From contig JAUHWN010000003.1 in the NCBI GenBank assembly GCA_030424665.1, positions 6,996 through 70,995 of the forward strand: DNA of 64,000 bases, in the 5' to 3' direction. Of this stretch, positions 1,973-55,837 are shown in pieces. The stretch comes from Bdellovibrionia bacterium (GTDB lineage: Bacteria > Bdellovibrionota > Bdellovibrionia > Bdellovibrionales > JAGQZY01). The first letter of the stretch is position 1, and each line of letters begins with the position of its first letter. Under the pieces are notes generated by a model, which was given only the letters and a program-made list of their open reading frames with translations, had not been told where the DNA came from and did not search any database. Made by a program: the position numbers and the translations under genes.

Positions 1973-1995
1973 TTCGAATACAGAAGGATAAAACA

Positions 1996-2745: not shown

Positions 2746-2748
2746 TCT

Positions 2749-3797: not shown

Positions 3798-3800
3798 GTA

Positions 3801-6968: not shown

Positions 6969-8457
6969 GAAGTACGAAGCCAAATCGATGCAAGATGCAC
7001 TTAAAATGATTAAAATGGAGCTCGGCCCAGAGGCCATTATCCTTCAGGCCAAGAACCTTTCAAAGGGTTTTGGTCTTATGAATCAGGGAAGTGTTGAAGT
7101 CACTGCCGCAGTTTCTGAAGGAGTATTGAAGAAAAAGCAGCTCGTTGAATCACGAATGAGAGCGGTTGATAAGGAGCGTTTTTCAGCCATTCCAGCAAGA
7201 CGGCAAAAAGAAATGATCGAAAAGGTTGTTGGTCGTTATTCAAATAACAACAATAAAAATGTTAACATTACAGCGAAACCTTATATATCGATTTCTGATG
7301 ACGAAGCGAGCGAGACGAATGGGTCCCGGGAGCAACTCATCGATGAGGTCATCAATAAGAGTCTAAAGCAGGCTAAGCAGGCAGACACTCAGGTGAATAG
7401 AGACGAGGATGCCCGCAAAAGAGTTCAGAATGCTGCCAAGACGGCACTCGATGCCGGTAAGGATCTTTTTGCGGAAGATCAAAAAGATGCGGCCCCAAAG
7501 GTGGATCAGGCCTCTCGCTCTCAAGTCAGTTCCGGTCCGTCCGATGCTGAGGTTCATCAGTTAAAACAAGAAATAGCTCGCCTTCAATCTGTGATTCAGG
7601 GCTTTCAAAAGATGCCACAGACTTTTGTGACCGCTCACCCGGGAGCTCAATATGGTATTCCTTACGAATTGAATCCCGTTTTCGAAAAGTTGAGTCAAGC
7701 CGGGGTGAGTACTGAATGTGTTGTTGAAATTATTAAAGCGGCTCAAGGTAAAATGCCAGGAGATCAGTTAGTAAAAACACCTATGGTGGATGCTTTCGCC
7801 GCTCGTTACATTCTCGATCATGTGACCACTACTGACAAACCCCTTGAAAGTAAGTTCCACTCTTTTATTGGCCCGTCGGGTGGGGGTAAAACCTCGAGCC
7901 TCGTCAAGATGGCTAGTTATTTGGTGATTAAGAAGAAAAAGAAAATTGCCATCCTTAGTTCTGACATTTTCAAAGTTGGAGCCGTCGATCAGTTAAAAAT
8001 CTACTGTAAAATTTTGAATATTCCTTGTTTTGTGATGCGACCAGGAGAGGATAATGGCGACCTGATTAACCAACTCCATGGGTTCGACCATGTATTGATT
8101 GATCACCCAGGAATGTCTATGTCGAGTATTGAAGAAATCGACTTTACAAAGGGAAGTCTGCTTCCAGGCGTCACTGACCACAAGGTTCACCTCGTATTGT
8201 CTTGTTCTTTCAAAGAGCAGGATTGTCTTGAGTTAGCTCAAAGATTCAAAGTCGCTAAGTTTAACGACATTATTTTTACGGGCCTTGATCTTTCAAGGCA
8301 GCATGGCCTGATCTATAGCGTTCAGCAGAAGACGGGCTGTCCACTTCATTCTTTTGGAACTGGATCAAGAGTTCCTGAGGATTTTGAATTTGCAACAAAA
8401 GAGAGAGTTCTCGATCTCATATTTAAGTTATCAAGTTTAAAGGGTCAAAGAGGTTAA
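6958..8457 (+). CDS. flhF: Flagellar SRP-type GTPase FlhF
   Basis: The ATG at 6958 (MQVKKYEAKSMQDALKMIKMELGPEAIIL, typical FlhF N-terminus) has GGAG 8 nt upstream and overlaps the flhA stop. The track's ORF starts at 6925. The G-domain P-loop is FIGPSGGGKTSSLVKMA, followed by DIFKVGAVDQLK. Confidence 0.85.
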   Translation: MQVKKYEAKSMQDALKMIKMELGPEAIILQAKNLSKGFGLMNQGSVEVTAAVSEGVLKKKQLVESRMRAVDKERFSAIPARRQKEMIEKVVGRYSNNNNKNVNITAKPYISISDDEASETNGSREQLIDEVINKSLKQAKQADTQVNRDEDARKRVQNAAKTALDAGKDLFAEDQKDAAPKVDQASRSQVSSGPSDAEVHQLKQEIARLQSVIQGFQKMPQTFVTAHPGAQYGIPYELNPVFEKLSQAGVSTECVVEIIKAAQGKMPGDQLVKTPMVDAFAARYILDHVTTTDKPLESKFHSFIGPSGGGKTSSLVKMASYLVIKKKKKIAILSSDIFKVGAVDQLKIYCKILNIPCFVMRPGEDNGDLINQLHGFDHVLIDHPGMSMSSIEEIDFTKGSLLPGVTDHKVHLVLSCSFKEQDCLELAQRFKVAKFNDIIFTGLDLSRQHGLIYSVQQKTGCPLHSFGTGSRVPEDFEFATKERVLDLIFKLSSLKGQRG

Positions 8458-8462
8458 GTTTT

Positions 8463-9305
8463 ATGAGTTATCAGAGTCCAAATTTATATGGCCAACACGG
8501 TTCCCACACAAAAGTTTTGAGTATTGCCTCAGGTAAAGGTGGGGTGGGGAAGACGACAATTACTTCAAATCTAGCACTCAGCCTAGCATCTCAGGGTCAC
8601 AGGGTTCTAATACTAGACGGTGATCTGGGCATGGCGAATGTAGACATAATGTTTGGAGTAAGGTCGCAGCACCACATTGGAGATATTCTTCAAGGGAGAG
8701 TGAGTGTCGAAGATGCGATTCAAAGAATCGACAAAAATATAGACCTATTGTCTGGTGGTAGTGGGCTCTACGAAATGTCAAAAATATCTACAGTAGAAAA
8801 AGCGCAACTTATAGAGCAGATAAGTGAGATTGGAACACACTATGACTATATGTTAGTCGATACGGCTCCTGGTATTAGTGACCAAGTCCTCTTCTTAAAT
8901 AGTGCTGCTCAACAAATATGTGTTGTTATTACCCCAGACCCCGCATCGATTGCTGACTCCTATGCACTAATGAAGGTGCTGAATCAGCATTATCGTGAAC
9001 AAAGATTTTCTATTATCTGCAATCAAGTATCAGATGTTGCACAAGGAAAGCGTTTGTTTTCCAAAATTAATGATATCTGTTCAAAGTTTCTGTACTTGAG
9101 TCTTGATTATTTGGGTTCAATCCCTCAAGATAAAGTTCTGAGGCAAACAACACAAACACAAAAGCTTGTAGTTAGATCCCATCCAGACGCTATCTCGACT
9201 GTCTCAATACGAGAAATTGCAAATGAATTAAGTGGTTACAATCAAATAGACAGCTGTAAAGGAAGTCTACAATTTTTCTGGCGCCAGCTCTTAGGTGTGG
9301 CATGA
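8463..9305 (+). CDS. flhG: MinD/ParA-type ATPase FlhG (FleN/YlxH), flagellar number regulator
   Basis: 280 aa. It has the deviant Walker A motif SGKGGVGKTTITSNLA and sits between flhF and fliA. Confidence 0.85.
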   Translation: MSYQSPNLYGQHGSHTKVLSIASGKGGVGKTTITSNLALSLASQGHRVLILDGDLGMANVDIMFGVRSQHHIGDILQGRVSVEDAIQRIDKNIDLLSGGSGLYEMSKISTVEKAQLIEQISEIGTHYDYMLVDTAPGISDQVLFLNSAAQQICVVITPDPASIADSYALMKVLNQHYREQRFSIICNQVSDVAQGKRLFSKINDICSKFLYLSLDYLGSIPQDKVLRQTTQTQKLVVRSHPDAISTVSIREIANELSGYNQIDSCKGSLQFFWRQLLGVA

Positions 9306-9366
9306 AAAGATTTGGACTTTTGAGAACTCGTTCTGTTTGATACCTTTAAGTTATAAGGAAGGTAGA

Positions 9367-10146
9367 ATGTCCTCAAGCTTACTTAAAAAATATAAAGAAG
9401 AGCCTAGTAAGTTAACTCCTCAACAAAAAGATAAGTTGATTATGGAGTATGCGCCGCTCATTAAGTTTATCGCTCAGAAGATAGCCGTGAGACTACCTTC
9501 AAATATCGAGCTCGATGACCTTATTTCAAGTGGAGTAATAGGCCTAATGGATGCCATCGAGAAATACGATCCGACACGCGATAATAAGTTTAAGACTTAC
9601 GCAGAATTTCGTATTCGTGGTTCGATTCTCGATGAACTCAGAGCTCAAGATTGGGTACCCCGTTCGGTTCGAGATAAAGCAAAGCTCTTAGATCGAACAA
9701 TTGGGGAGCTAGAGACTGAACTTGGACGTTCGCCTGAGGACGAAGAAGTGGCTGCGAAACTTAGTATGACCATGGACGAGTTCTACGATCTCGTTAATCA
9801 GGTTCGGCCGGTGAGTGTCCTCTCAATAGATGAGCAGGCTACTTTTAGTAATGTCGATAAGAAGTCTATTTTAAGCATCCTAGAGGGTGCTAAATTAAAT
9901 AATCCATTTAATCAGTTGAACTCTAAGTCAGTAAAAGAAGTCGTCACTCGAGCCATCGAGGAGCTTCCTGAGAGACAAAGACTGGTTCTTTCTCTTTACT
10001 ACTATGAGGACTTAAACTTGAAAGAAATCGGTAAGGTCCTTCGCGTGACAGAAAGTCGAGTTTCTCAACTTCACGCTCAAGCTGTTGCAAGACTTAGAGC
10101 TAAGTTGCAGATCGTTTTCGGCGAACAAGAAATGGAAGCTTCTTAA
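9367..10146 (+). CDS. fliA: Flagellar sigma factor FliA (sigma-28)
   Basis: The ATG at 9367 follows AAGGAAGG. The track's ORF starts at 9295. Sigma-70 regions 2, 3 and 4 are present (DLISSGVIGLMDAIEKYDP..., LNLKEIGKVLRVTESRVSQLHAQAV). It is the last gene of the flagellar operon. Confidence 0.9.
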   Translation: MSSSLLKKYKEEPSKLTPQQKDKLIMEYAPLIKFIAQKIAVRLPSNIELDDLISSGVIGLMDAIEKYDPTRDNKFKTYAEFRIRGSILDELRAQDWVPRSVRDKAKLLDRTIGELETELGRSPEDEEVAAKLSMTMDEFYDLVNQVRPVSVLSIDEQATFSNVDKKSILSILEGAKLNNPFNQLNSKSVKEVVTRAIEELPERQRLVLSLYYYEDLNLKEIGKVLRVTESRVSQLHAQAVARLRAKLQIVFGEQEMEAS

Positions 10147-18870: not shown

Positions 18871-19062
18871 GAAGTTTTATATTAAATTTGAGCTACTTAC
18901 AGTTCAACAGGAAGATCAATAAGGGGACTATGGCCCCAGTCGTTTTGTATCTTAATTGTAAAATCAAGCCTTAGGTCTGAATTGCGCTGAATTGAGTCAA
19001 GGTTCACTCCTAAAGTGTCGAAAAGAAGTTGATAGGAGATTTTCTCCACGGGAGTGCACTGT

Positions 19063-21417
19063 ATGAAATATACAAGTATTTTGGCAATTTTAGTAAGCAT
19101 GACCTTTCTGCTGACGACAATAAAGTCGGAAGCATTTTCTGGTTATGGATACGGAATGTATGGAGCCATGCAAGCTTGCCCTTTTGGCGTTTCAGGAGCC
19201 AATGGAGCGAGTGACGACGAAGATGCGATTGATGAACTTCGAGGGGATCGTCGTGAATTGCAAGATCAAATTAGAGATTTAGAACGACTAATTGGTCGCG
19301 CTGATGATCGCATTCTAGAACTTCAAGACAAAGTGCAAAGGGTTGTGAATAGCGATTACTGGCCAGCTGTTGAAGAACATATTCGCGATCAGAAAAACTG
19401 TTCTTGCGATTACAGTGTACAGCTTCTTGATCCAGCATTTGCTCCTTCTATTGTCGCTCCCACAAGAGGCAGCAAAGTTATGGTCACAACGATGACCCCT
19501 AGATCAACAAGAGCTCCAGCGTCTGTAAGTCGCGGACCGGCTGGTGTGAATGCCGAAGAGCAAGCACCAGATGGTGTCTGTAACACAGCTCAAGATATTA
19601 TTGATCCCGATTGTGATGGTGCATGTGACCTTCGTCATGAAAATACCGATTTAGACTGCAGACCTCAAGAACAAGCGGCTACCGAAATTGATTGTAGTCG
19701 GCCGGAAAATCGAAGTAACCAAGCCTGTGCGACAGCGGCTGATCCCGAACAAGTTGGCCGATCTGAAGAAACCATCGAAGTTTCAACAGATGGATATTGT
19801 GAAGCGGGAACTGCCGGTTGTTCTCCACGAGAAGTTGCAGTAGATCCTGCACCAACGGGTCGAGACCCAGCTTCTGAACCGGGCTGTGCTGAACGTTTAA
19901 GAGGAGTCGGTGTTACTGACGAGTCCTATATTGCACGTAACTGTGCGCCGAGTTCGGTGAGTGCGGGCTATGATGATGGCGGATCACCTTTTTGTGTATC
20001 ACCAGAAACAGCCCCAATTGTAGTTACTGACAACTGGAGACGAATTTGTATTTCGAATGGTGGAATTCGTGCAGCTGTCTGTGATGGTGCTGCTTATACA
20101 AGAAACGGTGTGAGTTCAAGAGATCGTTCCGATTGTCGAAACGCTCTCAATAGACTTCGCCAAGCTCAAGATCGTAGAGCTTCTCTTGAGCGAAGATTAG
20201 CTGAATACAACGATCAACTCGGTACAATCGAAGATGATCTTGCCGATGCAGAATTTCGCAGAGACTTTGACGATGATCTCGAAGCGGATTGTGCCGATGG
20301 TGAATGTTACACCCGTCGCCACAGAAGAGATCGCGATAGAAATAGTTCTACTTCAAGTATCATTGGTACAATTGGGTCAATTGGTCTTGGTGCTTTAGGA
20401 CTTTACTTAGGAAATCGTCGAGCGAAGGAAGCGATCAATACGAACGCTGACTTGGGTTGGCCGACGAATCCGTACCTCGCCAGTGGATTTGGTTTTCCAT
20501 ACGCTGCTGCCGGGTTATACGGCGCACTTAATGGAGGACTCGGAGCTGGTGGCTTTGGTTGCGGTGCTGGTGGACTCGGTCCTTTGGGAATGGCATCACC
20601 TCTTGCTGCCCTCGGTATGTACGGTGGCGGTCTTGGCGGTGGAATGTTTATGCCGGGAATGGGACCATGGGGAATGGCTGGCCTTGGTGGCGGAATTCCT
20701 GGAATGGGAATGGGCGCTCTCGGTGGCTTTGGTGCCATTGGTGGAGCTATGGCCCTTGGGGGTCTCGGCGCTTACGGAACTCTTGGTGGACTCGGTTACA
20801 TGGGGGCGCTTGGAGCTTATGGTGCTCTTGGAGGACAACTCGGTGGAATTGGTGCTTTAGGCGGACCCATTGGTGGTCTCGGTATGATTGGTGGAATTCA
20901 GGTTGGCGTGCTCGGTGGATACGGAGCCCTCGGCGGCGGACTCGGAGCCCTCGGAACCATTGGTGGTCTCGGCGCCCTTGGAGGTGGACTCGGAGCCTTA
21001 GGCGGTGGTCTTGGCGCTCTTGGAGGCGGACTCGGAGCCTTAGGCGGTGGTCTTGGCGCTCTTGGAGGTGGACTCGGCGCTTTAGGCGGTGGTTTGGGTG
21101 CCCTTGGAGGAGCGCTTGGCGGTCAATACACACAACAACTACTGCAGTTACAAATGCAACAACAACAGCAGCAAGCCGCTCAATTACGAGAGTACACATC
21201 TTTGATGCAAGAATACCAATCCCTTCAATTGAGACTGATGCAGTTTAACGGACTCGGTGGAGTTGGTGGTCTTGGTGGAGTTGGAGGACTCGGTGGCGTT
21301 GGAGGACTCGGTGGAATCGGTGGGGCCCTCGGTGGGGGAACTCTTCTTCCGACAAGTCCTACGACTCCAATTAATTCTTTCCCTGGATCGGGTACGACTC
21401 CTTCGCGAAGTCGATAA
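19063..21417 (+). CDS. Large secreted/membrane protein: coiled coil, Cys-rich region, TM-like segment, Gly/Leu/Ala-rich repeats, poly-Q
   Basis: The ATG at 19063 has GGAG 8 nt upstream. The track starts at the GTG at 19054. The signal peptide is MKYTSILAILVSMTFLLTTIKSEA. About 20 Cys lie between two coiled-coil-like segments. The hydrophobic segment IIGTIGSIGLGALGLYLG is followed by NRRAKE. Then comes ~320 aa of GGLGALG-type repeats, QQLLQLQMQQQQQQAAQL and GLGGVGG repeats. Confidence 0.75.
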   Translation: MKYTSILAILVSMTFLLTTIKSEAFSGYGYGMYGAMQACPFGVSGANGASDDEDAIDELRGDRRELQDQIRDLERLIGRADDRILELQDKVQRVVNSDYWPAVEEHIRDQKNCSCDYSVQLLDPAFAPSIVAPTRGSKVMVTTMTPRSTRAPASVSRGPAGVNAEEQAPDGVCNTAQDIIDPDCDGACDLRHENTDLDCRPQEQAATEIDCSRPENRSNQACATAADPEQVGRSEETIEVSTDGYCEAGTAGCSPREVAVDPAPTGRDPASEPGCAERLRGVGVTDESYIARNCAPSSVSAGYDDGGSPFCVSPETAPIVVTDNWRRICISNGGIRAAVCDGAAYTRNGVSSRDRSDCRNALNRLRQAQDRRASLERRLAEYNDQLGTIEDDLADAEFRRDFDDDLEADCADGECYTRRHRRDRDRNSSTSSIIGTIGSIGLGALGLYLGNRRAKEAINTNADLGWPTNPYLASGFGFPYAAAGLYGALNGGLGAGGFGCGAGGLGPLGMASPLAALGMYGGGLGGGMFMPGMGPWGMAGLGGGIPGMGMGALGGFGAIGGAMALGGLGAYGTLGGLGYMGALGAYGALGGQLGGIGALGGPIGGLGMIGGIQVGVLGGYGALGGGLGALGTIGGLGALGGGLGALGGGLGALGGGLGALGGGLGALGGGLGALGGGLGALGGALGGQYTQQLLQLQMQQQQQQAAQLREYTSLMQEYQSLQLRLMQFNGLGGVGGLGGVGGLGGVGGLGGIGGALGGGTLLPTSPTTPINSFPGSGTTPSRSR
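20977..21102 (+). repeat. Three tandem 42-bp repeats (two GGGLGAL heptapeptides each) inside the Gly-rich gene
   Basis: The unit CTTGGAGGTGGACTCGGAGCCTTAGGCGGTGGTCTTGGCGCT occurs at 20977-21018, at 21019-21060 (1 mismatch) and at 21061-21102 (more diverged). Degenerate copies flank it. Confidence 0.85.
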
Positions 21418-25435: not shown

Positions 25436-27514
25436 ATGAAAGTAAAATTTTCGATTCGATATAAGTTTTTGGCTGTTACCACTTTGCTCTTGCTGAGTTG
25501 TGTAACTTTATATTTGCTTCTCGCTTCAACCATTTTTAGTCGCGATAAAACAGAGCTTGTTTTTGATTTAAACAAGTCCACTGTTCATAATATTCGCTCA
25601 GAGATGGAAGCGGTCTTTTCTTCTGTGAGTGATAAGTTAGAGCTTTTTGCTTTGATTTCTCAATCTAAGCTCAAAGTCAAAAAAGAATTTCATCGCATTC
25701 TCGATAATGACGACACAATAGTTTATGTCCATTCTACGAATTCCAATAAATTTCAAAAGACGAGTGAATACAGTCAAAAGAAGTTTCTTCAGACTTATGG
25801 TCTTGAGGAAAAGTACTTTAAAGAAACCCTTCCGGGTATTAGAGCCGTTCCGATGGATGAGATTAAAGCCAATGGTCTTGCCTATTGGAATGCGACAGTG
25901 GATGGCGGTCCATTTTTAGTTGGAGTTGGTCGAAGTGTTGTACAAGAAGATTCCCGTGGCGTGGCCGTTTCACAGTTTGCTGTTATTAGTTATGTGCGAA
26001 TGGATCGTATCGCCAAAATGATAAACGAACTTCGAACCAACGAGGTGAGTATTGTCAGTGATCAAGGACAAGTTATTGTTGGCTACGGAGCGAAAGAAGC
26101 AAAGCCATGGGAGCTCTTTAGTCTTGCTCAAAGGAATCCTTTGAATTTAGGTGTTCTTGAGTATCAAGATCAGCAGGGTAAAAAGATGCTCGGCGGATTT
26201 TCTAAAAGTACGAAAAATCGTTTTTATGTACTTTCGCGGGTCGCGTCTGACAAGGTATTCGCTGTGGTCGAGAATCTCGTCTATCGCTCCATTGTGTTCG
26301 GCCTTATTATTGTGACATTGACCTTTATTGCCGCGATATTATTTTCACGCTCTATTACCCGACCTCTAGACACTCTCGTTGATGGTATGAAAGAAGTTTC
26401 TGGGGGAACATTATCTAAGCATATCGAATTGCGAACGATTGACGAAACAGCAGTTTTAGCCTCTTCTTTTAATCGAATGATTGATGATTTAAAAGAGTCT
26501 CGAGATCAACTTGAAGAGATAAATCGCGATCTCGAACAAAAAGTAAAAGATCGCACTAAAATGCTCGAAGAGCAGAATCGCGCGGTCAAACAGGCTCAAG
26601 AAGCATTGCTAAAGACGACCCGCCTCGCCTCGGTTGGAGAGATTGCGGGTCGCGCAGCTCATGAAATTCTCAACCCTTTAACGTCGATCATGACCAGAAT
26701 TAAGAAGGTGAGCGATAAGATAGAAGGTAATGCTGTCACAGATATTCAGTTTTTGGCCGAAATTCAGTCGAGCTGGGAAAACGACTTTAAATCGGGTGGC
26801 TTTGAAAAGTTGATTGCAGAGTGGCAGAAACCCTCTGAGGTAGATCAAGACAGTAATCTGTGGAACGAAGACATGAGTCATCTTAAAGAGGTGAATAAGA
26901 GTGTTGTCGATCAACTGACCTCATTGACGAACGATATGAAATTCCTGCTGAGTGAGTCTCAGAGAATTAGTAAGATTGTTCAGAGTATGAGATCCCTGTC
27001 TATAGTTAAGGGGAACAAGGCCAAGTATTCGGCCCATAAGCTTCTTCATGAGTCTGTGAATATAATGGGTGACCTCTTTGCACAGAATGAAGTTGAAGTC
27101 GTTGAGTGGTACGAAGCCAAAGAAGATGAAATTGTTGTTGATCGCGATGAATTCATCCAGAGTTTGACGAACCTTCTGCGCAATTCTCTGCAAGCAGTTC
27201 AAGAGATCGACAGGGACGGTTACAAACCGAAAATAGGATTGTTAACACGAATCGAAGAAGGCGAATTGATTATCGAAGTTGTTGATAACGGCACAGGGAT
27301 CGAGCCAGAACATAGAACTAAACTTTTTGAAACCCAGTTTTCTACAAAAGATCGCGAAGAGGGGACCGGCTTGGGCTTAAGCATCTCAAGACGATTTATT
27401 CGCGCCTACGGTGGTGATATTAAATTCATGGGTGACAACGAAAATTGGAACGCAGTCTTTCGTATTACGCTTCCCGCAAAAGAAGTTGAAAGACCGATGG
27501 AGGCCGCAGCATGA
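25436..27514 (+). CDS. Sensor histidine kinase (two TM, ~260-aa periplasmic domain, HAMP, HisKA, HATPase_c)
   Basis: 692 aa. TM1 is FLAVTTLLLLSCVTLYLLLAS and TM2 is IVFGLIIVTLTFIAAILFS. HAMP region: RPLDTLVDGMKEVSGG...FNRMIDDL. H-box: AAHEILNPLTSI. G-boxes: DNGTGIEPE and GTGLGLSISRRF. Confidence 0.85.
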   Translation: MKVKFSIRYKFLAVTTLLLLSCVTLYLLLASTIFSRDKTELVFDLNKSTVHNIRSEMEAVFSSVSDKLELFALISQSKLKVKKEFHRILDNDDTIVYVHSTNSNKFQKTSEYSQKKFLQTYGLEEKYFKETLPGIRAVPMDEIKANGLAYWNATVDGGPFLVGVGRSVVQEDSRGVAVSQFAVISYVRMDRIAKMINELRTNEVSIVSDQGQVIVGYGAKEAKPWELFSLAQRNPLNLGVLEYQDQQGKKMLGGFSKSTKNRFYVLSRVASDKVFAVVENLVYRSIVFGLIIVTLTFIAAILFSRSITRPLDTLVDGMKEVSGGTLSKHIELRTIDETAVLASSFNRMIDDLKESRDQLEEINRDLEQKVKDRTKMLEEQNRAVKQAQEALLKTTRLASVGEIAGRAAHEILNPLTSIMTRIKKVSDKIEGNAVTDIQFLAEIQSSWENDFKSGGFEKLIAEWQKPSEVDQDSNLWNEDMSHLKEVNKSVVDQLTSLTNDMKFLLSESQRISKIVQSMRSLSIVKGNKAKYSAHKLLHESVNIMGDLFAQNEVEVVEWYEAKEDEIVVDRDEFIQSLTNLLRNSLQAVQEIDRDGYKPKIGLLTRIEEGELIIEVVDNGTGIEPEHRTKLFETQFSTKDREEGTGLGLSISRRFIRAYGGDIKFMGDNENWNAVFRITLPAKEVERPMEAAA

Positions 27515-28815
27515 GTAGCGAGAGAGCAAAGAGCCTTCAAGAGATTGAAGAGCAGAAGAAAAATAAGTTAAGAGACGTCTCTTATAATCGTCGAATCTTA
27601 GTCGTCGAAGATGAGCCTGAGATTGCCGACTCCTATCGCAGACTTCTTGGGCAGCCCATTCAGCAAAGAAAACAAAGAAGATCTTCGCGAGGTGGAATGC
27701 AAAAGATGGCGTCGGCCGGGAGTGAGAGTTTAGAAAGAGAAAAGTTTATTATCGATATTGTCCACACGGCTGAAGATGCCCTAGTGCGCATTGAAGATTC
27801 TGTCGATGAAAATCGACCCTATGCCATGGCCTTTGTGGATGTCTTACTCGGTGAGGGAAAAGATGGAATTGAGCTTGTTCGCGAAATATTTAGCATGGAT
27901 AGTGACATCAATTGCGTATTTGTTACAGCTTACCAAGATCGTTCGGTTGATTCGATCCACGATCTCCTCGGACAGGAAAATAGCAACCGTTGGGATTACC
28001 TTAATAAACCCTTCTCTGATGGGGAAATTCTGCAAAAGGCTCGAAGTTCGATTAGTCTTTGGAACATGAGGCAACAAAGAGATCTCAAGCAACAGGAACT
28101 ATCGGAGGCGCGATCTCGATTACTGAGTTCTGAAAGAATGGTTTCAGTGGCAGCGGTAGCTAGAGGCGTTGGTCACGAGTTCGGAAATATACTCCTGCAT
28201 ATCATGGGTCGAGCTGAGCTCTCACGAATGGGCGAAGAAGAAGACATGAAGCACGGTCTCGATGTCATTCTTAAGGCCTGTGAAACAGCTACAGGTATTT
28301 TAGAAAAATTTAACGGCCTTGCAAAGCCGAGTGAAGAAAAGAAGAAACATCAGAGTATATTGGCTATGCAGCCTTTGAATGAAGCTTTAGATTTGATGTC
28401 TCACCAGTTGATGAGTTTTGAAGTCAACATCACCGCAAATGAAGATGATGTACTAACTTGTGAGGCTTCCAGTCATTCGTTGGTACAAGTCTTTGTAAAT
28501 TTAATTATGAATGCCATGGACGCCATGGGCGAAAGTGGCCGCATAGATATTTCATTGAAAGATGATGGAGATTGGGTTGAGTATCGAGTGAGGGATTTTG
28601 GCCCAGGAATTCCAGAACACATAATTGATCACGTTACAGAAGCATTTTTCACAACTAAGGGAAACAACGGGACAGGTTTAGGATTAGCCATCTGCCGCGA
28701 GATTGTTGAAATCGAGCACGGTGGTGAGTTCGTTGTTAAAAACCATTGTCAGCAAGGCGCAGAATTTGTGATCAGAGTGCCAAAAACGCAGGCATGGGAG
28801 GGGAAAAGTGAGTAG
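27511..28815 (+). CDS. Hybrid receiver / histidine kinase
   Basis: 434 aa. REC domain (RILVVEDEPEIADSY...FVDVLLGEGKDGIELV...KPF), then H-box GVGHEFGNILLHIMGRAEL and HATPase_c (DFGPGIPEH, GTGLGLAICREIV). It overlaps the upstream kinase gene by 4 nt. Confidence 0.85.
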   Translation: MSSERAKSLQEIEEQKKNKLRDVSYNRRILVVEDEPEIADSYRRLLGQPIQQRKQRRSSRGGMQKMASAGSESLEREKFIIDIVHTAEDALVRIEDSVDENRPYAMAFVDVLLGEGKDGIELVREIFSMDSDINCVFVTAYQDRSVDSIHDLLGQENSNRWDYLNKPFSDGEILQKARSSISLWNMRQQRDLKQQELSEARSRLLSSERMVSVAAVARGVGHEFGNILLHIMGRAELSRMGEEEDMKHGLDVILKACETATGILEKFNGLAKPSEEKKKHQSILAMQPLNEALDLMSHQLMSFEVNITANEDDVLTCEASSHSLVQVFVNLIMNAMDAMGESGRIDISLKDDGDWVEYRVRDFGPGIPEHIIDHVTEAFFTTKGNNGTGLGLAICREIVEIEHGGEFVVKNHCQQGAEFVIRVPKTQAWEGKSE

Positions 28816-29233
28816 TGAAAATGATTTGAGCATCGTTGTCGTCGATGACGACGCATTGGCCAGATCAATTATCGTCGAGTTCTTACAGTCCTTTGGATAC
28901 TCGAAGATTAAGCAATTTGGTTCTGGAGATCAGGCTATTAAATATATACAAGATGTGAATAACCCTGTGGATCTTGTGCTTTCCGATTGGGAAATGCCCA
29001 ATGGCACCGGTTTAAGTTTATTAAAAGCAGTACGCTGTAATACCGTTCGCAAGGACCTTCACTTTATGATGGTCACAAGTCAGCGCTCCCAGGAGCGATT
29101 TAAAATTTCTCAGGCTGCAAAATGGCGGGTTGATGCCTATTTAATTAAGCCTTTTCGCGGTAAAGTCTTGCGCGAAAAAGTAGACGAACTCGCCCAAAGT
29201 GCCATGCGGGAAAGAGCGAAACAGGCCAGCTAA
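28808..29233 (+). CDS. Single-domain CheY-like response regulator
   Basis: 141 aa with a GTG start after GGGAGGGG. REC residues: VVVDDD, LVLSDWEMPNGTG and YLIKPF. It overlaps the upstream gene by 8 nt. Confidence 0.85.
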   Translation: MSSENDLSIVVVDDDALARSIIVEFLQSFGYSKIKQFGSGDQAIKYIQDVNNPVDLVLSDWEMPNGTGLSLLKAVRCNTVRKDLHFMMVTSQRSQERFKISQAAKWRVDAYLIKPFRGKVLREKVDELAQSAMRERAKQAS

Positions 29234-29367
29234 TTATGTAAACTCAGTTCCCTTTTAAGTGAGATTTGGGAACTCGATTTTAGTCAGTATGTGTCCTCGA
29301 TCAAGGTTTGTAGGACTGTGTGAATTTTTTAAGGTGTGGGATAATTAAAGTGAGAAAGAGGAACTGG

Positions 29368-31122
29368 ATGAGAATCCTTTTAGGCACTTTAATTTTAATC
29401 TTCTTAGTATCGTCGCCGGTAAGTGCACAGGTGGGTGATAGCTTTGAAGTGGATATCACTTTTGATATGATCGACCGATCAACTTCAACGTTTTTTATAA
29501 ACGATCAAGATGGATTATTAGAGCCTCCTTTTTATGTCTACCAGGCCAATGATGGTCTCACGGGTTTATTTAACAAAAATATAAATGTGGGTGATGGTAG
29601 TGATGGGGTTTTTAACGCGACAACTTACGCTCAGTTTAGTGAGGGTGGCGATTTGTCCGGCAATATCATTCGCCTGAATCTAGCAACCTATCCGGAACTC
29701 AATGTGACCGAATTTGATCTCGAAGCCGGATGGACCATTGAGCCCATCGGTAACACTCCCTTGATTATTCGGAGCACTGGGACTGTAAATATTGCTGGAA
29801 CCATAGATTGTTCTGGAGAAGATGGCGAAGACGGCCGTGCTGGTATGGGTGATCGCGATGTGGTTTCATTGGGTGGCCAAGGTGTTTGCGGCGGTGGCAA
29901 CGGTGGAGATGGTGGATATCAATCGACCAACGCTACAAATGGTACAGAGGTCGGTGTTTTACCTATCGGGCCTGGTCAGGCGGGTGGTCGAAATACGGCT
30001 GATGCCAATGGGGCCGGTGGCGGTGGCGGCGGTGGTGCATTCGCTCCCGATACCCCTGGACTCGATGGTCCTTCAGACGGAAAAGACAATGGTGGTTTTG
30101 CCCTTGGCGGTCCCCGTGGAACTTCTTTTGAAGACAATGTGATTGCCACACAAGGTGGCGGTTCCGGTGGCGGCGGCGGCGGATACGCAGATTTCGGCGG
30201 TTCCGGTGGAACCGGCGGCGGTGGCGGTGCTGGCGGTGGCTCAGTTTATATATTCGCTCGCGGTAATATTGATATTGATGGTTTTATAGATGCCAGTGGC
30301 GGTGATGGTGGAGCTGAAGCCGACACCAGTGGCCCTGGTGGTGGTGGCGGTGGTGGTACCGTCTTTATTATTTCTCGAGGTATTATTAATGTTGCGGGTA
30401 ACGTCAATGCCGAAAGGGGCCAAGGCGGTAGTAGCGCTGGCAATGATGGTGATGGTGGTCAAGGTCGAACTTTCGTTAATGATCTAACCGACGACAATGA
30501 CTTTGGCTTTACAGGAGTTGCAGCCAATGTTCTTCCGCCTGCACTTTTCGCGGACTGGGGAAAGACTTTGTCTCGAGTTGCTGGACCGGCGGCAGTGGCG
30601 GATCCGACAGAGGTGAGTCCCGCTGATTACTACGAAATCGAAACTCAAGTTCTCGATACTGAGGCTCGTTCCTTTGAGGTCACAGACTTTACTGTCTATG
30701 GTAATAATCCTGGAAATGGAATTGTAGTCGTGCAAATGAAGGGCGCTCGCACCGAGGCAGCTCTAGAGCTGACTGATTACGAAACCTTGGCTTCGGGTAC
30801 CACCAAGGTCTTTCAAGACTCTCGTTTTTATAAAGTGAGAGTACGAGCCACAAATACAAGTCGACAAAATCCACTTCAAATCACGGGATTGGTTGTTAAT
30901 TTCTCAAAGTCTCAAGTGAATAGTTTTGAATTCAAAAGTGATGGGGGCGGTTGCGGAGCTATTTTACCGCTTGTGGGCTCAGGAGGCTCTGGCCCGGGTA
31001 ATGCCGATGGTTTAAGAGAAGCTCTATGGTGGCAGTCGCTTCTACTTTTGACCCTACTCCTCGCTCCCTTGAGTCTTATATTTTTCCGAAGGAAAAAAAG
31101 ATTTCAATTGAGCACTATTTAG
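29368..31122 (+). CDS. Exported glycine-rich, probably beta-helical surface protein with a C-terminal TM-plus-basic tail
   Basis: The ATG at 29368 (MRILLGTLILIFLVSSPVSAQ) follows GAGAAAGAGGA. The track starts at 29320. Poly-Gly runs (GAGGGGGGGAF, GGGSGGGGGGY, GGGGGAGGGSVYIFARGNIDIDG, PGGGGGGGTVFIISRGIINVAG) alternate with short beta-strand-like segments. The C-terminus is GGGCGA...WWQSLLLLTLLLAPLSLIFFRRKKR. Confidence 0.7.
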   Translation: MRILLGTLILIFLVSSPVSAQVGDSFEVDITFDMIDRSTSTFFINDQDGLLEPPFYVYQANDGLTGLFNKNINVGDGSDGVFNATTYAQFSEGGDLSGNIIRLNLATYPELNVTEFDLEAGWTIEPIGNTPLIIRSTGTVNIAGTIDCSGEDGEDGRAGMGDRDVVSLGGQGVCGGGNGGDGGYQSTNATNGTEVGVLPIGPGQAGGRNTADANGAGGGGGGGAFAPDTPGLDGPSDGKDNGGFALGGPRGTSFEDNVIATQGGGSGGGGGGYADFGGSGGTGGGGGAGGGSVYIFARGNIDIDGFIDASGGDGGAEADTSGPGGGGGGGTVFIISRGIINVAGNVNAERGQGGSSAGNDGDGGQGRTFVNDLTDDNDFGFTGVAANVLPPALFADWGKTLSRVAGPAAVADPTEVSPADYYEIETQVLDTEARSFEVTDFTVYGNNPGNGIVVVQMKGARTEAALELTDYETLASGTTKVFQDSRFYKVRVRATNTSRQNPLQITGLVVNFSKSQVNSFEFKSDGGGCGAILPLVGSGGSGPGNADGLREALWWQSLLLLTLLLAPLSLIFFRRKKRFQLSTI

Positions 31123-37471: not shown

Positions 37472-39286
37472 ATGAAAATCCTAGTCCTATTCTTTTCTAT
37501 TGTTTTAATAAGCTTTCCCATGACATCGATTGCCCAGCGAGATTGCCAGGATCACATTCGTGATCTAATTGGTAGTCCCCATTTGAATGATCCGGGTATT
37601 TACCAAAATGTTTGGAATCGAGAAATCATTCAGCAAAGGGGACTTGAATTGGCCCCGGTGGAGTCTCAATCAGAAAATTTATTCCCAAATATTAATGTCT
37701 TTTTGCAACGAGCCAGTGAAGAAGAGAAATCTGTATTGTTTGGTCTCTTTGGACCAAAGAAGTCTTTGGGTAATATTGGTTTAACTAAACAGATGGCCTC
37801 GATTCTGTCGGCTGATGACGACTTACGAGGGATTATTGGTAGGCGTCTTGAAAACAATGAGCCAATATCATCTGTGACTATGTCCGAGATAATTTATTCA
37901 ATTAGGATGAGTTTTAGAAAGACTTATAGTGAAAGTCGCGAAGCCATCAGTGAAATTCGAAGTTTAGAAGAGAGATTGGCGGAATTACTCAAAGCATCTG
38001 GTGAAGATCGAAACCGGCAACAAGTCGACCTTCTAGTAGACAGAATTATGAGACTGCAAAATTCGATTTCTCATTTTGAGGAAAAAGAAAGTCTTTTTGA
38101 TTATTATGAACTTTTCGATGAAGATGTCGCCGCATATATTTTAAATGATTTAATTCTAGTAGGGATTATTGAATCAGGAATAATCAGTCCCCGCTATATA
38201 ACGAATAAACAAAGGATTCGATACTACTTTTCAAATCCTTTTTCGGATTTTTATCAGAGACGATTGACCTATTATTTGTATAGCGAACCGATTGATGGCT
38301 CTTACAATCTTGATCGTAGTATTTTTTCTTTAGAGTCCTATAGAGATAGTGAAATTTGGAATCCAATATTTACATTGATGACCGGAGGCGTGCTTGTTTC
38401 ATTGGGAACCCAGGGACATATTCTTAAGGAAATGGTGTCTGTCGGCCTCCCTTCGATCCTTGCAATTTCTAGTGTATTACCTGGCTCTGTTACCCAAAGA
38501 CTCGTAGCATTTTTTAGAAGAGCAATCTATCAGTCACGATTTAAGTCAATTCGAGATAAAGTGGGCGTAATGATCAGAGATGGGAAATTTGGTTTTACTG
38601 AGGAAAGTGGACATGGTGAAGAAAATGACTCTTACGACCCCGTCGAATTTGAAGTGATTGACCCTCTAGATCCTATTCGAATAAGTCGTCAGATTCTTGA
38701 GGCTCCAAATGCAGAACAAAGGGCGCAAGTCGTCAGTCATATGGTCGAGCGAATTGAAAAAGAAATATTAGTTTCATATTCGGCTCTACTTGCTCAAGAC
38801 AGAGATATTTATCCAATTATGAAATACTTACGAATGTGTAACCAATTGAATGAATGCAGCCCTTACAAGTCGCCGAGAAGAGTGTTACGCAAAGCTCAGT
38901 TACTTCTCGACCGGCACAATGTTATTTTGACAAGAAAACAAAACGTTCTATCTCCTTTGAAGGCTAGTTTGCTTCAAGTTAAAAGTAATTTAGAAGAAAC
39001 AGGCGATTCATCGGAGAGTGTTGAGCGAATCACCTTGCAGCTTGAGAACGTAGAATTACTTATCAGATTGAGTCAAAAACTCTTGGAGGGATACGAAGTA
39101 GTAACTAATTTATTAATTCATGGATTTCGATTTAAAGAAAATTACCAGGAAATTATTGATGAACTCTTGGCTATTGAGCTACTGATGTCAAATTCAGGAT
39201 TAATAGGTGATGTCTTGAATCCAGAATGGATCCTCCCTCAGCTTGAAGAGTTGGGTGTTTCGATCGATGAAGGTGGCTTCCATTAG
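37472..39286 (+). CDS. Large hypothetical protein (signal peptide, internal hydrophobic segments), AT-rich gene
   Basis: 604 aa with signal peptide MKILVLFFSIVLISFPMTSIAQ and a GGAGA RBS. No recognisable domain. Confidence 0.55.
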   Translation: MKILVLFFSIVLISFPMTSIAQRDCQDHIRDLIGSPHLNDPGIYQNVWNREIIQQRGLELAPVESQSENLFPNINVFLQRASEEEKSVLFGLFGPKKSLGNIGLTKQMASILSADDDLRGIIGRRLENNEPISSVTMSEIIYSIRMSFRKTYSESREAISEIRSLEERLAELLKASGEDRNRQQVDLLVDRIMRLQNSISHFEEKESLFDYYELFDEDVAAYILNDLILVGIIESGIISPRYITNKQRIRYYFSNPFSDFYQRRLTYYLYSEPIDGSYNLDRSIFSLESYRDSEIWNPIFTLMTGGVLVSLGTQGHILKEMVSVGLPSILAISSVLPGSVTQRLVAFFRRAIYQSRFKSIRDKVGVMIRDGKFGFTEESGHGEENDSYDPVEFEVIDPLDPIRISRQILEAPNAEQRAQVVSHMVERIEKEILVSYSALLAQDRDIYPIMKYLRMCNQLNECSPYKSPRRVLRKAQLLLDRHNVILTRKQNVLSPLKASLLQVKSNLEETGDSSESVERITLQLENVELLIRLSQKLLEGYEVVTNLLIHGFRFKENYQEIIDELLAIELLMSNSGLIGDVLNPEWILPQLEELGVSIDEGGFH

Positions 39287-52587: not shown

Positions 52588-53100
52588 ATGCGAGCACTGA
52601 TTTTTTGTATTAGTCTTCTTGCCGCCAATTATGCGCAAGCTACTGGCAAAGAGCTGATATTGTCTGTATTAAAAAATGATATGGGTAAAGTCGAATCCCT
52701 GATTTCTGCAGGTATAGACGTTAATTATGCCAATAAAAAGGGCATAACTCCTTTAATGCTGGCTGCTCTGAGTGGAAACTTAACAATCGTTAAGTACCTT
52801 GTTTCAAAGGGAGCGGACTTAAATAAGAAAGATGATAAAGGAAATACAGCTTTTCACGCCGCTTGTCGGGTGGGGCACAAAGATGTAATTGCTGAGTTTC
52901 TCGATAAGGGTGTCGACATTAATTCGGTCAATAAAAAGGGTTCAACCTGCCTTTTTCTTTCGGCCCAGGCTGGAAAAGTCGAGGCCATTGATTTGCTGAT
53001 TTCTAGGGGTGCTGACAAGTCCCTAAAAAATGTAACGGGCTTAACTCCTAAAGAAGCTGCTAGCATGTCTAATCATTCAGAGGCAGCCTCGAAACTTTAG
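52588..53100 (+). CDS. Secreted ankyrin-repeat protein (paralogue 2)
   Basis: 170 aa with signal peptide MRALIFCISLLAANYAQA. It is colinear with, and roughly half identical to, the upstream ankyrin protein, including the C-terminal LTPKEAASMSNHS. Confidence 0.85.
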   Translation: MRALIFCISLLAANYAQATGKELILSVLKNDMGKVESLISAGIDVNYANKKGITPLMLAALSGNLTIVKYLVSKGADLNKKDDKGNTAFHAACRVGHKDVIAEFLDKGVDINSVNKKGSTCLFLSAQAGKVEAIDLLISRGADKSLKNVTGLTPKEAASMSNHSEAASKL

Positions 53101-53785
53101 CCCCACAAAGAACATCTTCTCCAGTTTCAAAAACGAAGATCTGTGTTCTTGCCAAAATCATTACCAAAGCAAGACCAAGGATGACCGCTTTCAAATAGGT
53201 GAGGCTCTTGTGACTCACTTTGTTCTTAACAAATGAAAATAGGTAAGATTGATAACTGAAAATCGGAATTGTGCCAAACCAGAAGGCGATAATTAATAGC
53301 AGTGAATAGTTAAATTTCAATGAGAAGGTTATTAGGAGTACAAGGTAAAAATAAGAACAAGGAAGTAAAAGGCTAAACAAACCGAAGAGAAATGGCCTTG
53401 ATTTTCGCCTTTTGATAACTTGATTTTGTGCCGCCTTTTTGAGGTTAATGAATAACTCTGACTTTGCAAGTTTTCGACTCGATAGCCAAAACAAAAGAAG
53501 AGTTGATAAAATCGCTAAAAGACCCAACCAAGGGTAAGAATGACTCCATTGAAATAATTGTGTTCCCATCAAAGAGAATAAACTGGCGGCTATAAGATAG
53601 GCTAGAAGTCGACCTAAGTGGTAGATAAAAAATCCATTCTTCGTGGTTGAAGTATTTGCCAATGAGAAAAGTGGGCCGCACATGATTCCACAGTGGAGAC
53701 TCGAGAATATTCCTAAAATCACCATTGTAAGCGGTAGCAGAAAAAAAGGAATTTGGGAGCTAAGATTGAGGATAAGGTCCGGCAA
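53069..53785 (-). CDS. DsbD_2 / TauE-SafE-like membrane protein associated with the cco cluster
   Basis: 238 aa polytopic protein with the Cys motif SLHCGIMCGPLF in the first helix. It lies immediately downstream of ccoG. Family call is from memory of cco-linked genes. Confidence 0.55.
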   Translation of the reverse strand: MPDLILNLSSQIPFFLLPLTMVILGIFSSLHCGIMCGPLFSLANTSTTKNGFFIYHLGRLLAYLIAASLFSLMGTQLFQWSHSYPWLGLLAILSTLLLFWLSSRKLAKSELFINLKKAAQNQVIKRRKSRPFLFGLFSLLLPCSYFYLVLLITFSLKFNYSLLLIIAFWFGTIPIFSYQSYLFSFVKNKVSHKSLTYLKAVILGLALVMILARTQIFVFETGEDVLCGAKVSRLPLND

Positions 53786-55205
53786 TTTTTAACTCTCTTG
53801 TTTTATAGATGACTTTTGAATCAAAATCGATGATTTCAACTTTAACTCGTATGTCTTTCATTTCGTTAAAGGCTTCAGCCCGAGTTCGAATAAAGAAGGG
53901 TGCTCTTTGGCTTTTCTTCGTATCAACAGTTAAGTTTTGTAATGGAAAAATAAGTTCAGCATGAGCTGGGCTATTTTGAATTCGTGCGATCAGCTTATGG
54001 GGTTTGTGACTCTGATTTTTTATATTAATGCTAAATTGATTGAGGACAAACTTTTGCCCTTGTTCTTCAACGATCTGAAACGGGCTGTTTTTAGTTCGAG
54101 TGACGTGTATTGCAAGATCAGTTCTTCCACCGATCGCAATGGTCGCTCCTACAATTATGACTAATAGTAAGATCCCATAACCAAAGACACGTGGAGAAAG
54201 TAATTTGCTCGGTATCTTTTTTAAGTCATTGATTGAGGCATAGCGAATAAGTCCTTTGGGCCGATTGAGTTTTGTCATAATTTCATCACATGCATCGATA
54301 CAACGAGTACAGGCAATACACTCAAGTTGTTGTCCTCGTCTTATATCAATACCTGTCGGGCAAACTGAGACGCATTTAAAACAGTCAACACAATCCCCAG
54401 CATTTGGGTCCGATTTTTTTCCTCGAGGTTCGCCACGATTGTAGTCATAGGTTACCGTTTTACTGTTTTCATCCATGAGGACGGACTGAAAGCGACCATA
54501 AGGGCACATGATGATACAGAATTGTTCTCTGAACCATCCAAAGTCGAAGAGGATAACTCCAGTAATAAAGGCCATTATCACAAAAACGGTCCAGCTTTCG
54601 GCAGGAGGAGCACTCATCATATGAAATAGGTTTTCTCGACCCACGAAGTAGGCCACAAGGGTATGACTGATCACCAGTGATAGAAAGAGAAAGAGTCCCC
54701 ACTTAGTTGAAAGCAAAAAGAATTTTTTAAGATTCATCTCTTGCTTGTAGAATTTAATTTGCTTTTGCCGGTTCCCTAAAAGCAGCTGCTCAATTCCTCT
54801 AAAAATAGTTTCAATAAACACTGTTTGTGGGCAGGCCCACCCACACCAAACGCGCCCCCACAGTGCTGTGACCAAAGCCAGTACTAAAGCTCCTCCACCC
54901 AAAATAAAAAATACCTTTGGTGCATCATGGGCAAAAAAGATAAGACCGAAAAAGTTAAAGACACGATCAGGGATATTAAAGAGAAGTGCTTGCTCACCAT
55001 TAATTTCTATCCAGGGAAGAGCAAAAAGGACAAAGATGAGAAAGATATGCATGAGTCGTCTTTTATTCTTCCAGAAGCCAGAAACTTCAGCTGGGATAAT
55101 GTTGACGTGATCTCCGTGTTCATCGGTGGTGGAGAGTCTTTCTTCGGGTAGGTTTCTAAAATCTAATTGACTCATCTTCTTTAACTTTCTCGAAGTGGAC
55201 CCCAT
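53760..55205 (-). CDS. ccoG: cbb3 oxidase accessory protein CcoG/FixG (4Fe-4S ferredoxin-type)
   Basis: 481 aa with TM helices. Motifs: CGWACPQTVF and CIIMCPYGRFQS. Two ferredoxin clusters are present (CVDCFKCVSVCPTGIDIR, CIACTRCIDACD). An alternative start is at 55175. Confidence 0.88.
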   Translation of the reverse strand: MGSTSRKLKKMSQLDFRNLPEERLSTTDEHGDHVNIIPAEVSGFWKNKRRLMHIFLIFVLFALPWIEINGEQALLFNIPDRVFNFFGLIFFAHDAPKVFFILGGGALVLALVTALWGRVWCGWACPQTVFIETIFRGIEQLLLGNRQKQIKFYKQEMNLKKFFLLSTKWGLFLFLSLVISHTLVAYFVGRENLFHMMSAPPAESWTVFVIMAFITGVILFDFGWFREQFCIIMCPYGRFQSVLMDENSKTVTYDYNRGEPRGKKSDPNAGDCVDCFKCVSVCPTGIDIRRGQQLECIACTRCIDACDEIMTKLNRPKGLIRYASINDLKKIPSKLLSPRVFGYGILLLVIIVGATIAIGGRTDLAIHVTRTKNSPFQIVEEQGQKFVLNQFSINIKNQSHKPHKLIARIQNSPAHAELIFPLQNLTVDTKKSQRAPFFIRTRAEAFNEMKDIRVKVEIIDFDSKVIYKTRELKIAGPYPQS

Positions 55206-55224
55206 GTGAGGCCCACGAGTTCAC

Positions 55225-55836: not shown

Positions 55837-55837
55837 A

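Follow-up and report, generated by a model that had tools for sequence, protein, structure and literature searches.

We describe a gene at 29368..31122 on the forward strand of a 64,000-nucleotide stretch of Bdellovibrionia DNA (the window). It encodes a glycine-rich protein of 584 residues that ends in a Cys motif, a hydrophobic helix and a cluster of basic residues, and it converges on a gene for a protein with FecR-like, Ig-like and barrel domains (the partner). The anatomy of the three-part tail is conserved in the protein family, and so is the gene cluster. Judged by its sequence, the tail is most suitably classed as a new variant of the tripartite, Cys-type C-terminal design, outside all named families. 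We tentatively favor the reading that it is a tether retained in the inner membrane, as part of a trans-envelope signaling module. The tail may be the membrane-anchoring end of an exported family specific to Bdellovibrionota, for which we infer the topology, the localization and the fate of the tail. On present evidence, we give a plain anchor a slight edge over a new sorting signal.

The three-part tail and the protein that carries it

The tail of the window protein reads DGGGCGAILPLVGSGGSGPGNADGLREAL-WWQSLLLLTLLLAPLSLIFF-RRKKR-FQLSTI*. The tripartite arrangement recurs in 158 homologues with ~30-40% overall identity, whose tails were selected by the Cys motif and underlie the statistics given here. 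The consensus is [small][G/A/S]-C-G-[R/S/L]-[V/I], a linker, a Leu-rich-Pro-Leu-rich helix and [R/K]x[R/K], amounting to ~34 residues in a typical member. The Cys, Cys529 in the window protein, is invariant in 67 of 67 aligned sequences. It is preceded by Gly, Ala or Ser in 140 of the 158 tails and followed by Gly in 133 and by Ala in 21 (154/158). The Cys is located 6-7 residues past the conserved Phe of the last sandwich strand in 60 of the 67 aligned sequences, whereas the helix follows it after a spacer of 2-49 residues (median 12, interquartile range 9-14). The Cys thus keeps its place relative to the folded domain and is only weakly constrained relative to the helix. The spacer in the window tail is ~23-27 residues, an outlier. 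An earlier note on this DNA, made from the sequence alone, had taken the long Cys-helix spacing as a possible new variant; the spacing turns out to be peculiar to this one lineage. The helix has a median length of 17 residues; in 124 of the 158 tails, the eight residues after it have a net charge between +2 and +4. Few residues lie beyond the basic cluster, and they are not conserved. The helix contains a Pro in 131 of the 158 tails (83%), which stands exactly 8 residues ahead of the first basic residue in 70 of these.

The 3' ends of the tail gene and the partner gene overlap by 4-63 nt in ~30 loci (4 nt in the window), so that the last codons of the tail are antisense to the conserved C-terminal strand of the partner. 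This overlap and the unconserved final residues could indicate a chance or annotation artefact, either antisense read-through of the convergent gene or a mis-called open reading frame (ORF). But the motif, linker, helix and basic cluster are all upstream of the overlap, the parts of the tail are conserved in the 158 homologues, and a hidden Markov model (HMM) of the tail separates the family almost completely from all other ORFs. The artefact is refuted by these conservation data, and we consider its probability negligible. In the 64 kb of the window, 29368..31122 is the only real ORF with a hydrophobic-plus-basic C-terminus.

The ORF (29320/29368..31122, forward strand) likely starts at the ATG at 29368. 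A ribosome-binding-site-like AAGAGGA is located 5-11 nt upstream of this ATG, and the homologues share the same start point. A promoter and terminator scan around the gene found nothing above the shuffled expectation, and the only DNA tandem repeats were short Gly-codon runs. A protein in a public collection, P0001, is 100% identical to the window protein. No Pfam or NCBIfam model matches the protein or its tail. The predicted order of elements is a signal peptide, a Gly-rich β-solenoid, a β-sandwich, the Cys motif, a linker, a transmembrane helix and RRKKR. The features that the earlier note had listed, namely the signal peptide, the lead-in, the runs of 5-7 Gly with hydrophobic strands and the three-part tail, are all present in the translation, and the three-part tail is real and conserved in the lineage with its Cys invariant. 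In the lead-in, VGDGSDGVF corresponds to residues 74-82 and PLIIRSTGTVNIAGTIDCSG to residues 130-149. Residues 151-380 contain 36% Gly, with Gly runs of 7, 6, 5 and 7 at positions 217, 267, 283 and 324. Two 39-residue repeat units in this region (283-321 and 322-360, ~46% identical when aligned by eye) carry SVYIFARGNIDIDGFIDASGGDGG and TVFIISRGIINVAGNVNAERGQGG. The mature window protein has three Cys residues, C148, C174 and C529.

An AlphaFold2 (AF2) model built with the 67-sequence family alignment has a predicted local distance difference test score (pLDDT) of 85 and a predicted template modeling score of 0.81. In the signal peptide region, it shows a helix at residues 2-13 and a low-pLDDT stretch at 15-21. 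The remainder comprises a small N-terminal β domain, the Gly-rich part, a β-sandwich at ~385-522, a disordered segment at 530-543 and a helix at 549-582. Three-strand rungs repeat at 132-147, 292-308 and 331-347 (a repeating DSSP pattern of 6, 3 and 3 strands, pLDDT >90). The segments between the rungs are Gly-rich, confidently modeled and devoid of regular secondary structure. This structure check, together with the 39-residue sequence repeat, bears out the earlier proposal of a repetitive solenoid with Gly turns. A stacked-rung solenoid is supported as a prediction, and its type is not fixed by a PDB match. In a Foldseek search of the PDB, the sandwich alone was matched, weakly, by jelly rolls of the MAM, ephrin-receptor and F5/8 types (E value 6e-3), and there was no significant match for the solenoid part (a tailspike match had a probability of 0.18). 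Against BFVD, the Gly-rich part resembled predicted 'collagen-like' proteins of giant viruses (E value 6e-10, TM-score ~0.25).

A word-indexed search returned 82 homologues. An exhaustive search of cluster representatives returned 368 at E values of 1e-3 or below and 173 at 1e-10 or below, mostly 500-600 residues long. Wherever source names or record titles are present, the tail-bearing relatives are from Bdellovibrionota, and the window protein clusters at at least 90% with a protein of 'Bdellovibrionia bacterium 7_bin.39'. The invariant columns in the 67-sequence alignment (~31-40% identity to the window protein) are Gly residues, F82, C148, C174 and C529, and F520 and G530 are conserved in at least 90% of the sequences. 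All the tail carriers found are homologous to one another over their full lengths. Homologues from other phyla (P0079, P0174, P0176, P0183 and P0193) stop at the last sandwich strand and have no tail. Two giant proteins, P0166 (7,437 residues) and P0197 (5,597 residues), contain five to eight copies of the Gly-rich solenoid unit and have no Cys tail at their ends. Two metagenome scans, one with P0004 alone as the query and one with a 15-sequence GDLSGNII alignment, yielded no confirmed relatives. A profile search with the tail only in a collection of 5.8 billion proteins gave 0 of 611 candidates at E values of 10 or below; it missed family members too, so this null result reflects a limit of the method rather than absence. 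A literature search for a Bdellovibrio C-terminal sorting signal found nothing relevant. The family and its gene cluster are new and are described by nothing in Pfam or NCBIfam.

Comparison with known sorting signals

When 112 family tails were run singly against NCBIfam, the model matched most was MYXO-CTERM (TIGR03901), with weak matches to 7 of them (best E value 4e-4). A hand-made consensus tail aligned to positions 2-34 of the 34 positions in this model and, at 15.8 bits, fell short of the cutoff of 20. The window tail had no match to it at E values of 10 or below and did not reach the curated 20-bit cutoff. The models for PEP-CTERM, GlyGly-CTERM and other CTERM signals each matched at most one of the 112 tails, with E values of 0.05-0.5. 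The 80-residue C-terminus of the window protein matched Heimdall-CTERM alone, at a meaningless E value of 0.74; no CTERM model reached its cutoff on the window tail.

One alternative to a tether is a signal of the MYXO-CTERM kind. Once Sec has exported the protein, the helix would keep the precursor in the inner membrane. Cys529 would be lipidated, and an unlinked intramembrane protease, of the CPBP type or other, would remove the linker, the helix and the basic tail. The lipid-anchored solenoid would then reach the outer membrane or the surface and pair with the barrel protein, as in the TraA/TraB pair. We regard this as possible but doubtful. Signal peptide, invariant Cys among small residues, helix and basic cluster are common to the family and to MYXO-CTERM proteins, which are processed by the myxosortases MrtX, MrtC and MrtP. 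The overall length of ~34 residues and the charge that follows the helix also agree, the commonest context of the Cys is G/A/S-Cys-Gly, and MYXO-CTERM is the sole CTERM model with repeated, if weak, matches. C529 has no obvious pairing partner in the mature protein, where the other two Cys residues, C148 and C174, are both invariant. MrtX was shown to cleave MYXO-CTERM (Guo, Haft and Wall 2025, PMC11980579). In the model proposed for MYXO-CTERM, the Cys is lipidated before cleavage, perhaps by Lgt, and export through a type II secretion system follows (PMC11980579), so a long linker need not block cleavage.

Several differences argue against this alternative. MYXO-CTERM helices contain no Pro or charged residues, and the motif is often GCGC (Haft 2023); the tails here have one Cys, never GCGC, and a Pro in most helices. 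The distance between the Cys and the helix is also highly variable here. MYXO-CTERM has 3-73 clients per proteome, and a single protein family was seen here in the window and ~0.26 Mb of DNA outside the cluster. Outside Myxococcota, Haft's myxosortase core model (NF040914) matched proteins in Bradymonadales only, among >14,000 representative proteomes; the family described here belongs to another phylum, with no reported myxosortase core, and the window encodes none. The order of elements in MYXO-CTERM proteins is read as domain, linker, motif and helix. A disordered region adjoins the MYXO-CTERM region in these proteins (PMC11980579). Here no disordered spacer precedes the Cys, which adjoins the folded domain, and cutting at the Cys would leave the mature protein without a stalk.

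JDVT-CTERM, the signal processed by the CPBP protease MrtJ, likewise has a single invariant Cys and a conserved residue in a Leu-rich helix, and it typically has one client per genome. JDVT-CTERM is distinguished by a near-invariant Asp-Pro nine residues after the Cys (Haft 2023). In contrast, the consensus here is GCGxxx...LLLPxxxxxxLR with no conserved Asp, the Pro is ~20 residues after the Cys, and there is no match to NF033191. In that one-client system, the protease gene is within 4 kb of 17 of 36 clients and directly adjacent in 16 of the 17 (10.1101/2023.06.07.544157), whereas no protease is a conserved neighbor in the 72 loci here. JDVT-CTERM clients are often mutually unrelated, unlike the tail carriers here, which are all homologous. 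Like our family, Synerg-CTERM (TIGR04564), the signal for MrtS, has a Leu-rich helix with a conserved Pro and, ahead of it, a Ser/Gly-rich run closed by one invariant Cys. It lacks the spacer between the Cys and the helix, and its helix Pro is invariant (Haft 2023); the spacer here has a median of 12 residues, the model is not matched, and the phylum is another. These three Cys-type signals, MYXO-, JDVT- and Synerg-CTERM, are the nearest described relatives in design. The tail shares the invariant Cys with all of them and the helix Pro with the latter two, and it fully matches none.

PEF-CTERM (TIGR03024), which is handled by an archaeosortase, bears on the Gly-rich domain rather than on the window tail, which has no PEF motif and no match to this model. 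A distant homologue, P0206 (695 residues), ends in ...PEFSAIGVLLLISITIIGIFLWRKRK, a sequence that scores near the PEF-CTERM threshold (19.4 bits against 23) and matches Loki-CTERM more weakly. This end suggests that P0206 may be an archaeal relative displayed by an archaeosortase, and thus that the Gly-rich domain is probably displayed through a sorting tag elsewhere. In P0206 and another distant homologue, P0072, the Gly-rich domain weakly matches the N-terminal domain of the Myxococcus gliding protein AgmC (NF047640; best E value 1e-5, 24 bits against a cutoff of 275).

Haft's working criteria for a sorting signal ask that otherwise unrelated proteins share the tail, or that a dedicated membrane enzyme be encoded next to it or follow its distribution. 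A search of GTDB genomes with a DNA pattern encoding GDGx[DH]GxFxxxxYxxF, together with exact-protein look-ups, yielded 121 loci (1.14 Mb), and we ran the tail HMM on the C-termini of all stop-to-stop segments with filters off. All matches with E values <1 were family members, at 7-46 bits. Almost all family tails score 11-46 bits and a few with very long linkers 3-7 bits; the 7 bits of the window tail reflect its outlier spacer length. No carrier outside the family was found in these loci (best non-family score 6.5 bits), of which just ~0.26 Mb lies outside the conserved cluster, so that a signal with ~ten clients per genome might escape notice. When C-termini were scanned generically for a helix and basic residues, only family members, their distant relatives and ordinary polytopic proteins came up.

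Neighbor clustering over the 72 loci revealed no conserved polytopic membrane protein, and no exosortase, CPBP or rhomboid gene is near the family gene in any of them. In the loci read with Pfam labels, neither CPBP (PF02517) nor rhomboid (PF01694) is listed within ±10 kb. The earlier note had seen no candidate processing enzyme in the window, and this stands: the polytopic ORFs tested with Pfam encode flagellar export proteins, cbb3 oxidase, CcoG, a DsbD_2 protein and a P-type ATPase. A 604-residue protein (37472-39286, forward strand) with about three hydrophobic segments has no Pfam match and is the one membrane protein of the window that lacks an assignment. Peptidase_M48 was rejected as the processing enzyme. 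A few loci (L121, L102 and the P0026 locus) have a Peptidase_M48 gene at a distance of 3-5 kb, and most have none; in L121, the N-terminus of the product is of the lipoprotein type, and no transmembrane helix is predicted. The idea of a lineage-specific sorting signal in the earlier note thus fares unevenly: the conserved tripartite Cys-type design speaks for it, and the single client family in the sample and the missing linked enzyme speak against it.

The conserved gene cluster and the convergent partner

The tail gene is the fourth of a co-oriented set, after the genes for a HAMP kinase, a hybrid kinase and a response regulator, and its start often overlaps the regulator stop. Among the neighbors in 72 loci, kinase and regulator genes are found upstream on the same strand in 61, a FecR-domain gene downstream on the opposite strand in 52, and a gene for a 381-residue protein in 14. 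Distant relatives of 384-396 residues keep the pairing with the FecR partner, and the signaling set there consists of HAMP-SpoIIE, kinase and regulator genes. Proteins annotated as 'Collagen' by Pfam are encoded upstream of these relatives, directly so in L114 and L115, and carry no Cys tail. A receiver-GGDEF gene follows the partner gene in L002-L004, L006, L119, L120 and L122, and not in the window, which hints that the phosphorelay of the cluster may feed cyclic di-GMP signaling.

Of the 57 loci long enough to include the partner gene, 51 have it, and it is convergent in all 51; the two genes leave no space for a terminator-like site. The partner has 740-1,000 residues across the loci. Its AF2 model (45 sequences, pLDDT 83) shows an N-terminal helix, a FecR-like domain, Ig-like domains, disordered Pro/Lys-rich spacers, ten long antiparallel strands and a final Phe. 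The strand region matches the OpcA barrel (2vdf) with an E value of 2e-5 and a TM-score of 0.61 normalized to the target. The spacers are TonB-like, and the protein has no family annotation apart from FecR. In this model, the partner looks like a single-chain envelope-spanning architecture. In outer-membrane barrels, both termini face the periplasm, so the soluble domains of the partner should be periplasmic.

The arrangement of the two genes resembles that of traA and traB in Myxococcus xanthus, where a Cys-tailed exported protein is also encoded next to an overlapping gene for an outer-membrane barrel: TraA, a MYXO-CTERM protein, and TraB, the barrel, have adjacent, overlapping genes (PMC11980579). 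This likeness favors the MYXO-CTERM-like alternative. However, the genes here are convergent rather than co-directional, the proteins show no sequence similarity, and the functional link here is putative. The partner combines FecR, Ig-like domains and an OpcA-like 10-stranded barrel, whereas TraB consists of a barrel and an OmpA domain.

FecR-type trans-envelope signaling is another comparison, with a FecR protein that has an N-terminal membrane helix and is encoded beside signal-transduction genes. In contrast to that system, the cluster here has no sigma or anti-sigma gene and no TonB-dependent transducer, FecR is fused to Ig-like domains and an outer-membrane barrel, and the signaling genes encode a two-component phosphorelay. 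FecR-type pathways use regulated proteolysis, and helix-destabilizing residues favor such cleavage. The tail could accordingly be a retained, Pro-broken helix that a general site-2 or rhomboid-type protease cuts on a signal, freeing the periplasmic domain in FecR-like signaling. The conserved helix Pro at its fixed register and the association of the gene with a FecR-domain protein and a phosphorelay agree with regulated cleavage of this kind, but the cytoplasmic part consists of ~10 unconserved residues, so that no cytoplasmic effector would be freed, and the invariant Cys is left unexplained. We consider it improbable.

Taken to its full extent, the sorting alternative would describe a phylum-wide Cys-type signal with a single client family, MYXO-CTERM-like in design but with a Pro-containing helix, that is processed by an unlinked enzyme not recognizable as a myxosortase. 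The signal would bring a lipid-anchored Gly-rich solenoid to a partner with an OpcA-like barrel, and the two would make a TraA/TraB-like pair. In predatory Bdellovibrionota, the system would be controlled by a conserved phosphorelay, with a receiver-GGDEF cyclase added in many genomes. We think this combination unlikely. Cys-type tags were tied to CPBP proteases in 2023-2025 and have been described in Myxococcota, a few Pseudomonadota, Synergistota and Thermococcales. If it were true, a related tag in Bdellovibrionota would extend the mechanism to another predatory phylum and point to a further processing enzyme.

The tail as a putative retained tether

As a retained tether, the tail would act as follows. 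The N-terminal signal peptide would direct the protein into Sec export. Transfer would stop at the C-terminal helix, with the basic cluster remaining in the cytoplasm, and a flexible stalk of 10-45 residues from the inner membrane would hold the solenoid and the sandwich in the periplasm. There the solenoid protein would work with its convergently encoded FecR/Ig-like/barrel partner. The three-gene co-oriented phosphorelay, joined in many genomes by the receiver-GGDEF gene, would complete the set, which may be a trans-envelope sensing or structural module. The Cys, 6-7 residues past the last strand, would be a functional residue next to the folded domain, perhaps a site of intermolecular disulfide formation or acylation, rather than a signature for cleavage by a dedicated sortase-like enzyme. 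Putative elements of this model are the retained helix, the location of the protein, its contact with the partner and the role of the Cys.

We favor the tether because the Cys tracks the folded domain rather than the helix, only one homologous family carries the tail, no enzyme is linked to it, the stalk is variable and a periplasmic partner fits. A number of points weigh against it. An invariant and apparently unpaired Cys flanked by small residues is a hallmark of Cys-type sorting signals, and a tether leaves this Cys and the Pro at its fixed register unexplained. A disulfide from C529 to the partner was ruled out, since the window partner contains no Cys in its translation. A homodimer disulfide, acylation without cleavage and helix-helix contacts are possible roles for the Cys and the Pro in a tether. 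Bacterial proteins outside sorting systems seldom have both a cleavable signal peptide and a C-terminal stop-transfer anchor. In JDVT-CTERM, conserved residues within the helix are read as a sign of recognition by an intramembrane protease (10.1101/2023.06.07.544157). The near-complete alignment of the consensus tail to the MYXO-CTERM model, the PEF-CTERM-like end of P0206 and the small amount of sequence sampled outside the cluster also count on this side.

Under either reading, tether or sorting signal, the gene marks a phylum-conserved cluster of three signaling proteins, a solenoid and a FecR/barrel protein. This cluster is a candidate module for envelope sensing in bacteria that depend on surface contact for their way of life, and the invariant juxta-membrane Cys provides a simple experimental handle. 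The coordinates of the gene, the parts of its product and the genes around it are collected in Table 1.

Table 1. Features of the tail gene, its product and neighboring genes. Positions refer to the window unless a locus is named.
Feature	Position	Strand	Basis or remark
Coding sequence of the Gly-rich 584-residue protein	29368..31122	+	alternative GTG start at 29320
Predicted Sec-type signal peptide MRILLGTLILIFLVSSPVSA, residues 1-20, followed by QV	29368..29427	+	sequence reading; cleavage between VSA and Q
VGDGSDGxF motif and first solenoid rung ending in IDCSG, residues 74-150, with invariant C148	29587..29817	+	alignment, AF2
Predicted Gly-rich solenoid, residues 151-380, with invariant C174 and two 39-residue repeats at 283-360	29818..30507	+	sequence, alignment, AF2
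Predicted C-terminal β-sandwich, ~residues 385-522; last strand is the conserved F-x-F (F520)	30520..30933	+	AF2, alignment
Cys motif DGGGCGAI	30940..30963	+	invariant Cys529 codon at 30952-30954
Flexible Gly/Ser/Pro-rich linker, residues 533-552	30964..31023	+	AF2 pLDDT <50 for 530-543
Predicted transmembrane helix LWWQSLLLLTLLLAPLSLIFF, residues 553-573, including Pro567	31024..31086	+	AF2, sequence
Basic cluster RRKKR and FQLSTI, probably cytoplasmic	31087..31119	+	stop codon 31120-31122
Partner gene, 806 residues	31119..33539	-	3' end overlaps the tail gene by 4 nt
PA14/fn3-like protein, 384 residues	24281..25435	+	homologue ~3.9 kb upstream, same strand, in 14 loci
HAMP histidine kinase, two transmembrane segments	25436..27514	+	Pfam, neighbor clustering
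Receiver and HATPase_c protein (hybrid kinase)	27511..28815	+	Pfam, neighbor clustering
Single-domain response regulator	28808..29233	+	directly upstream of the tail gene in all loci read
Receiver-GGDEF protein (diguanylate cyclase)	L002 14439-15350; L006 14310-15242; L119 14167-15093; L120 14206-15153; L122 14257-15174		
Pfam 'Collagen' proteins	L114 8307-9956; L115 377-2161; L118 4299-5081		
Peptidase_M48 genes	L121 14787-15581; L102 3762-4976		also in the P0026 locus; not conserved with the cluster

The window encodes a second Gly-rich protein, unrelated to the tail protein. It has 787 residues (19054-21417, forward strand) and a hydrophobic N-terminus that makes export probable, and its gene is located in the GC-rich patch of the window (GC 0.51 against ~0.43). 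A Cys-rich acidic middle part and coiled-coil-like stretches are followed by ~250 residues of GGLGALGG-type repeats and a poly-Gln segment, and it has no Pfam match. A flagellar export operon (fliO/P/Q/R, flhB and flhA by Pfam) is found within 755-10146, and a cbb3 oxidase cluster, with a fused CcoN-CcoO, CcoG, a DsbD_2 protein and a P-type ATPase, occupies 53069-60474. The flagellar and cbb3 genes fit a motile, microaerobic, Bdellovibrionia-like organism.

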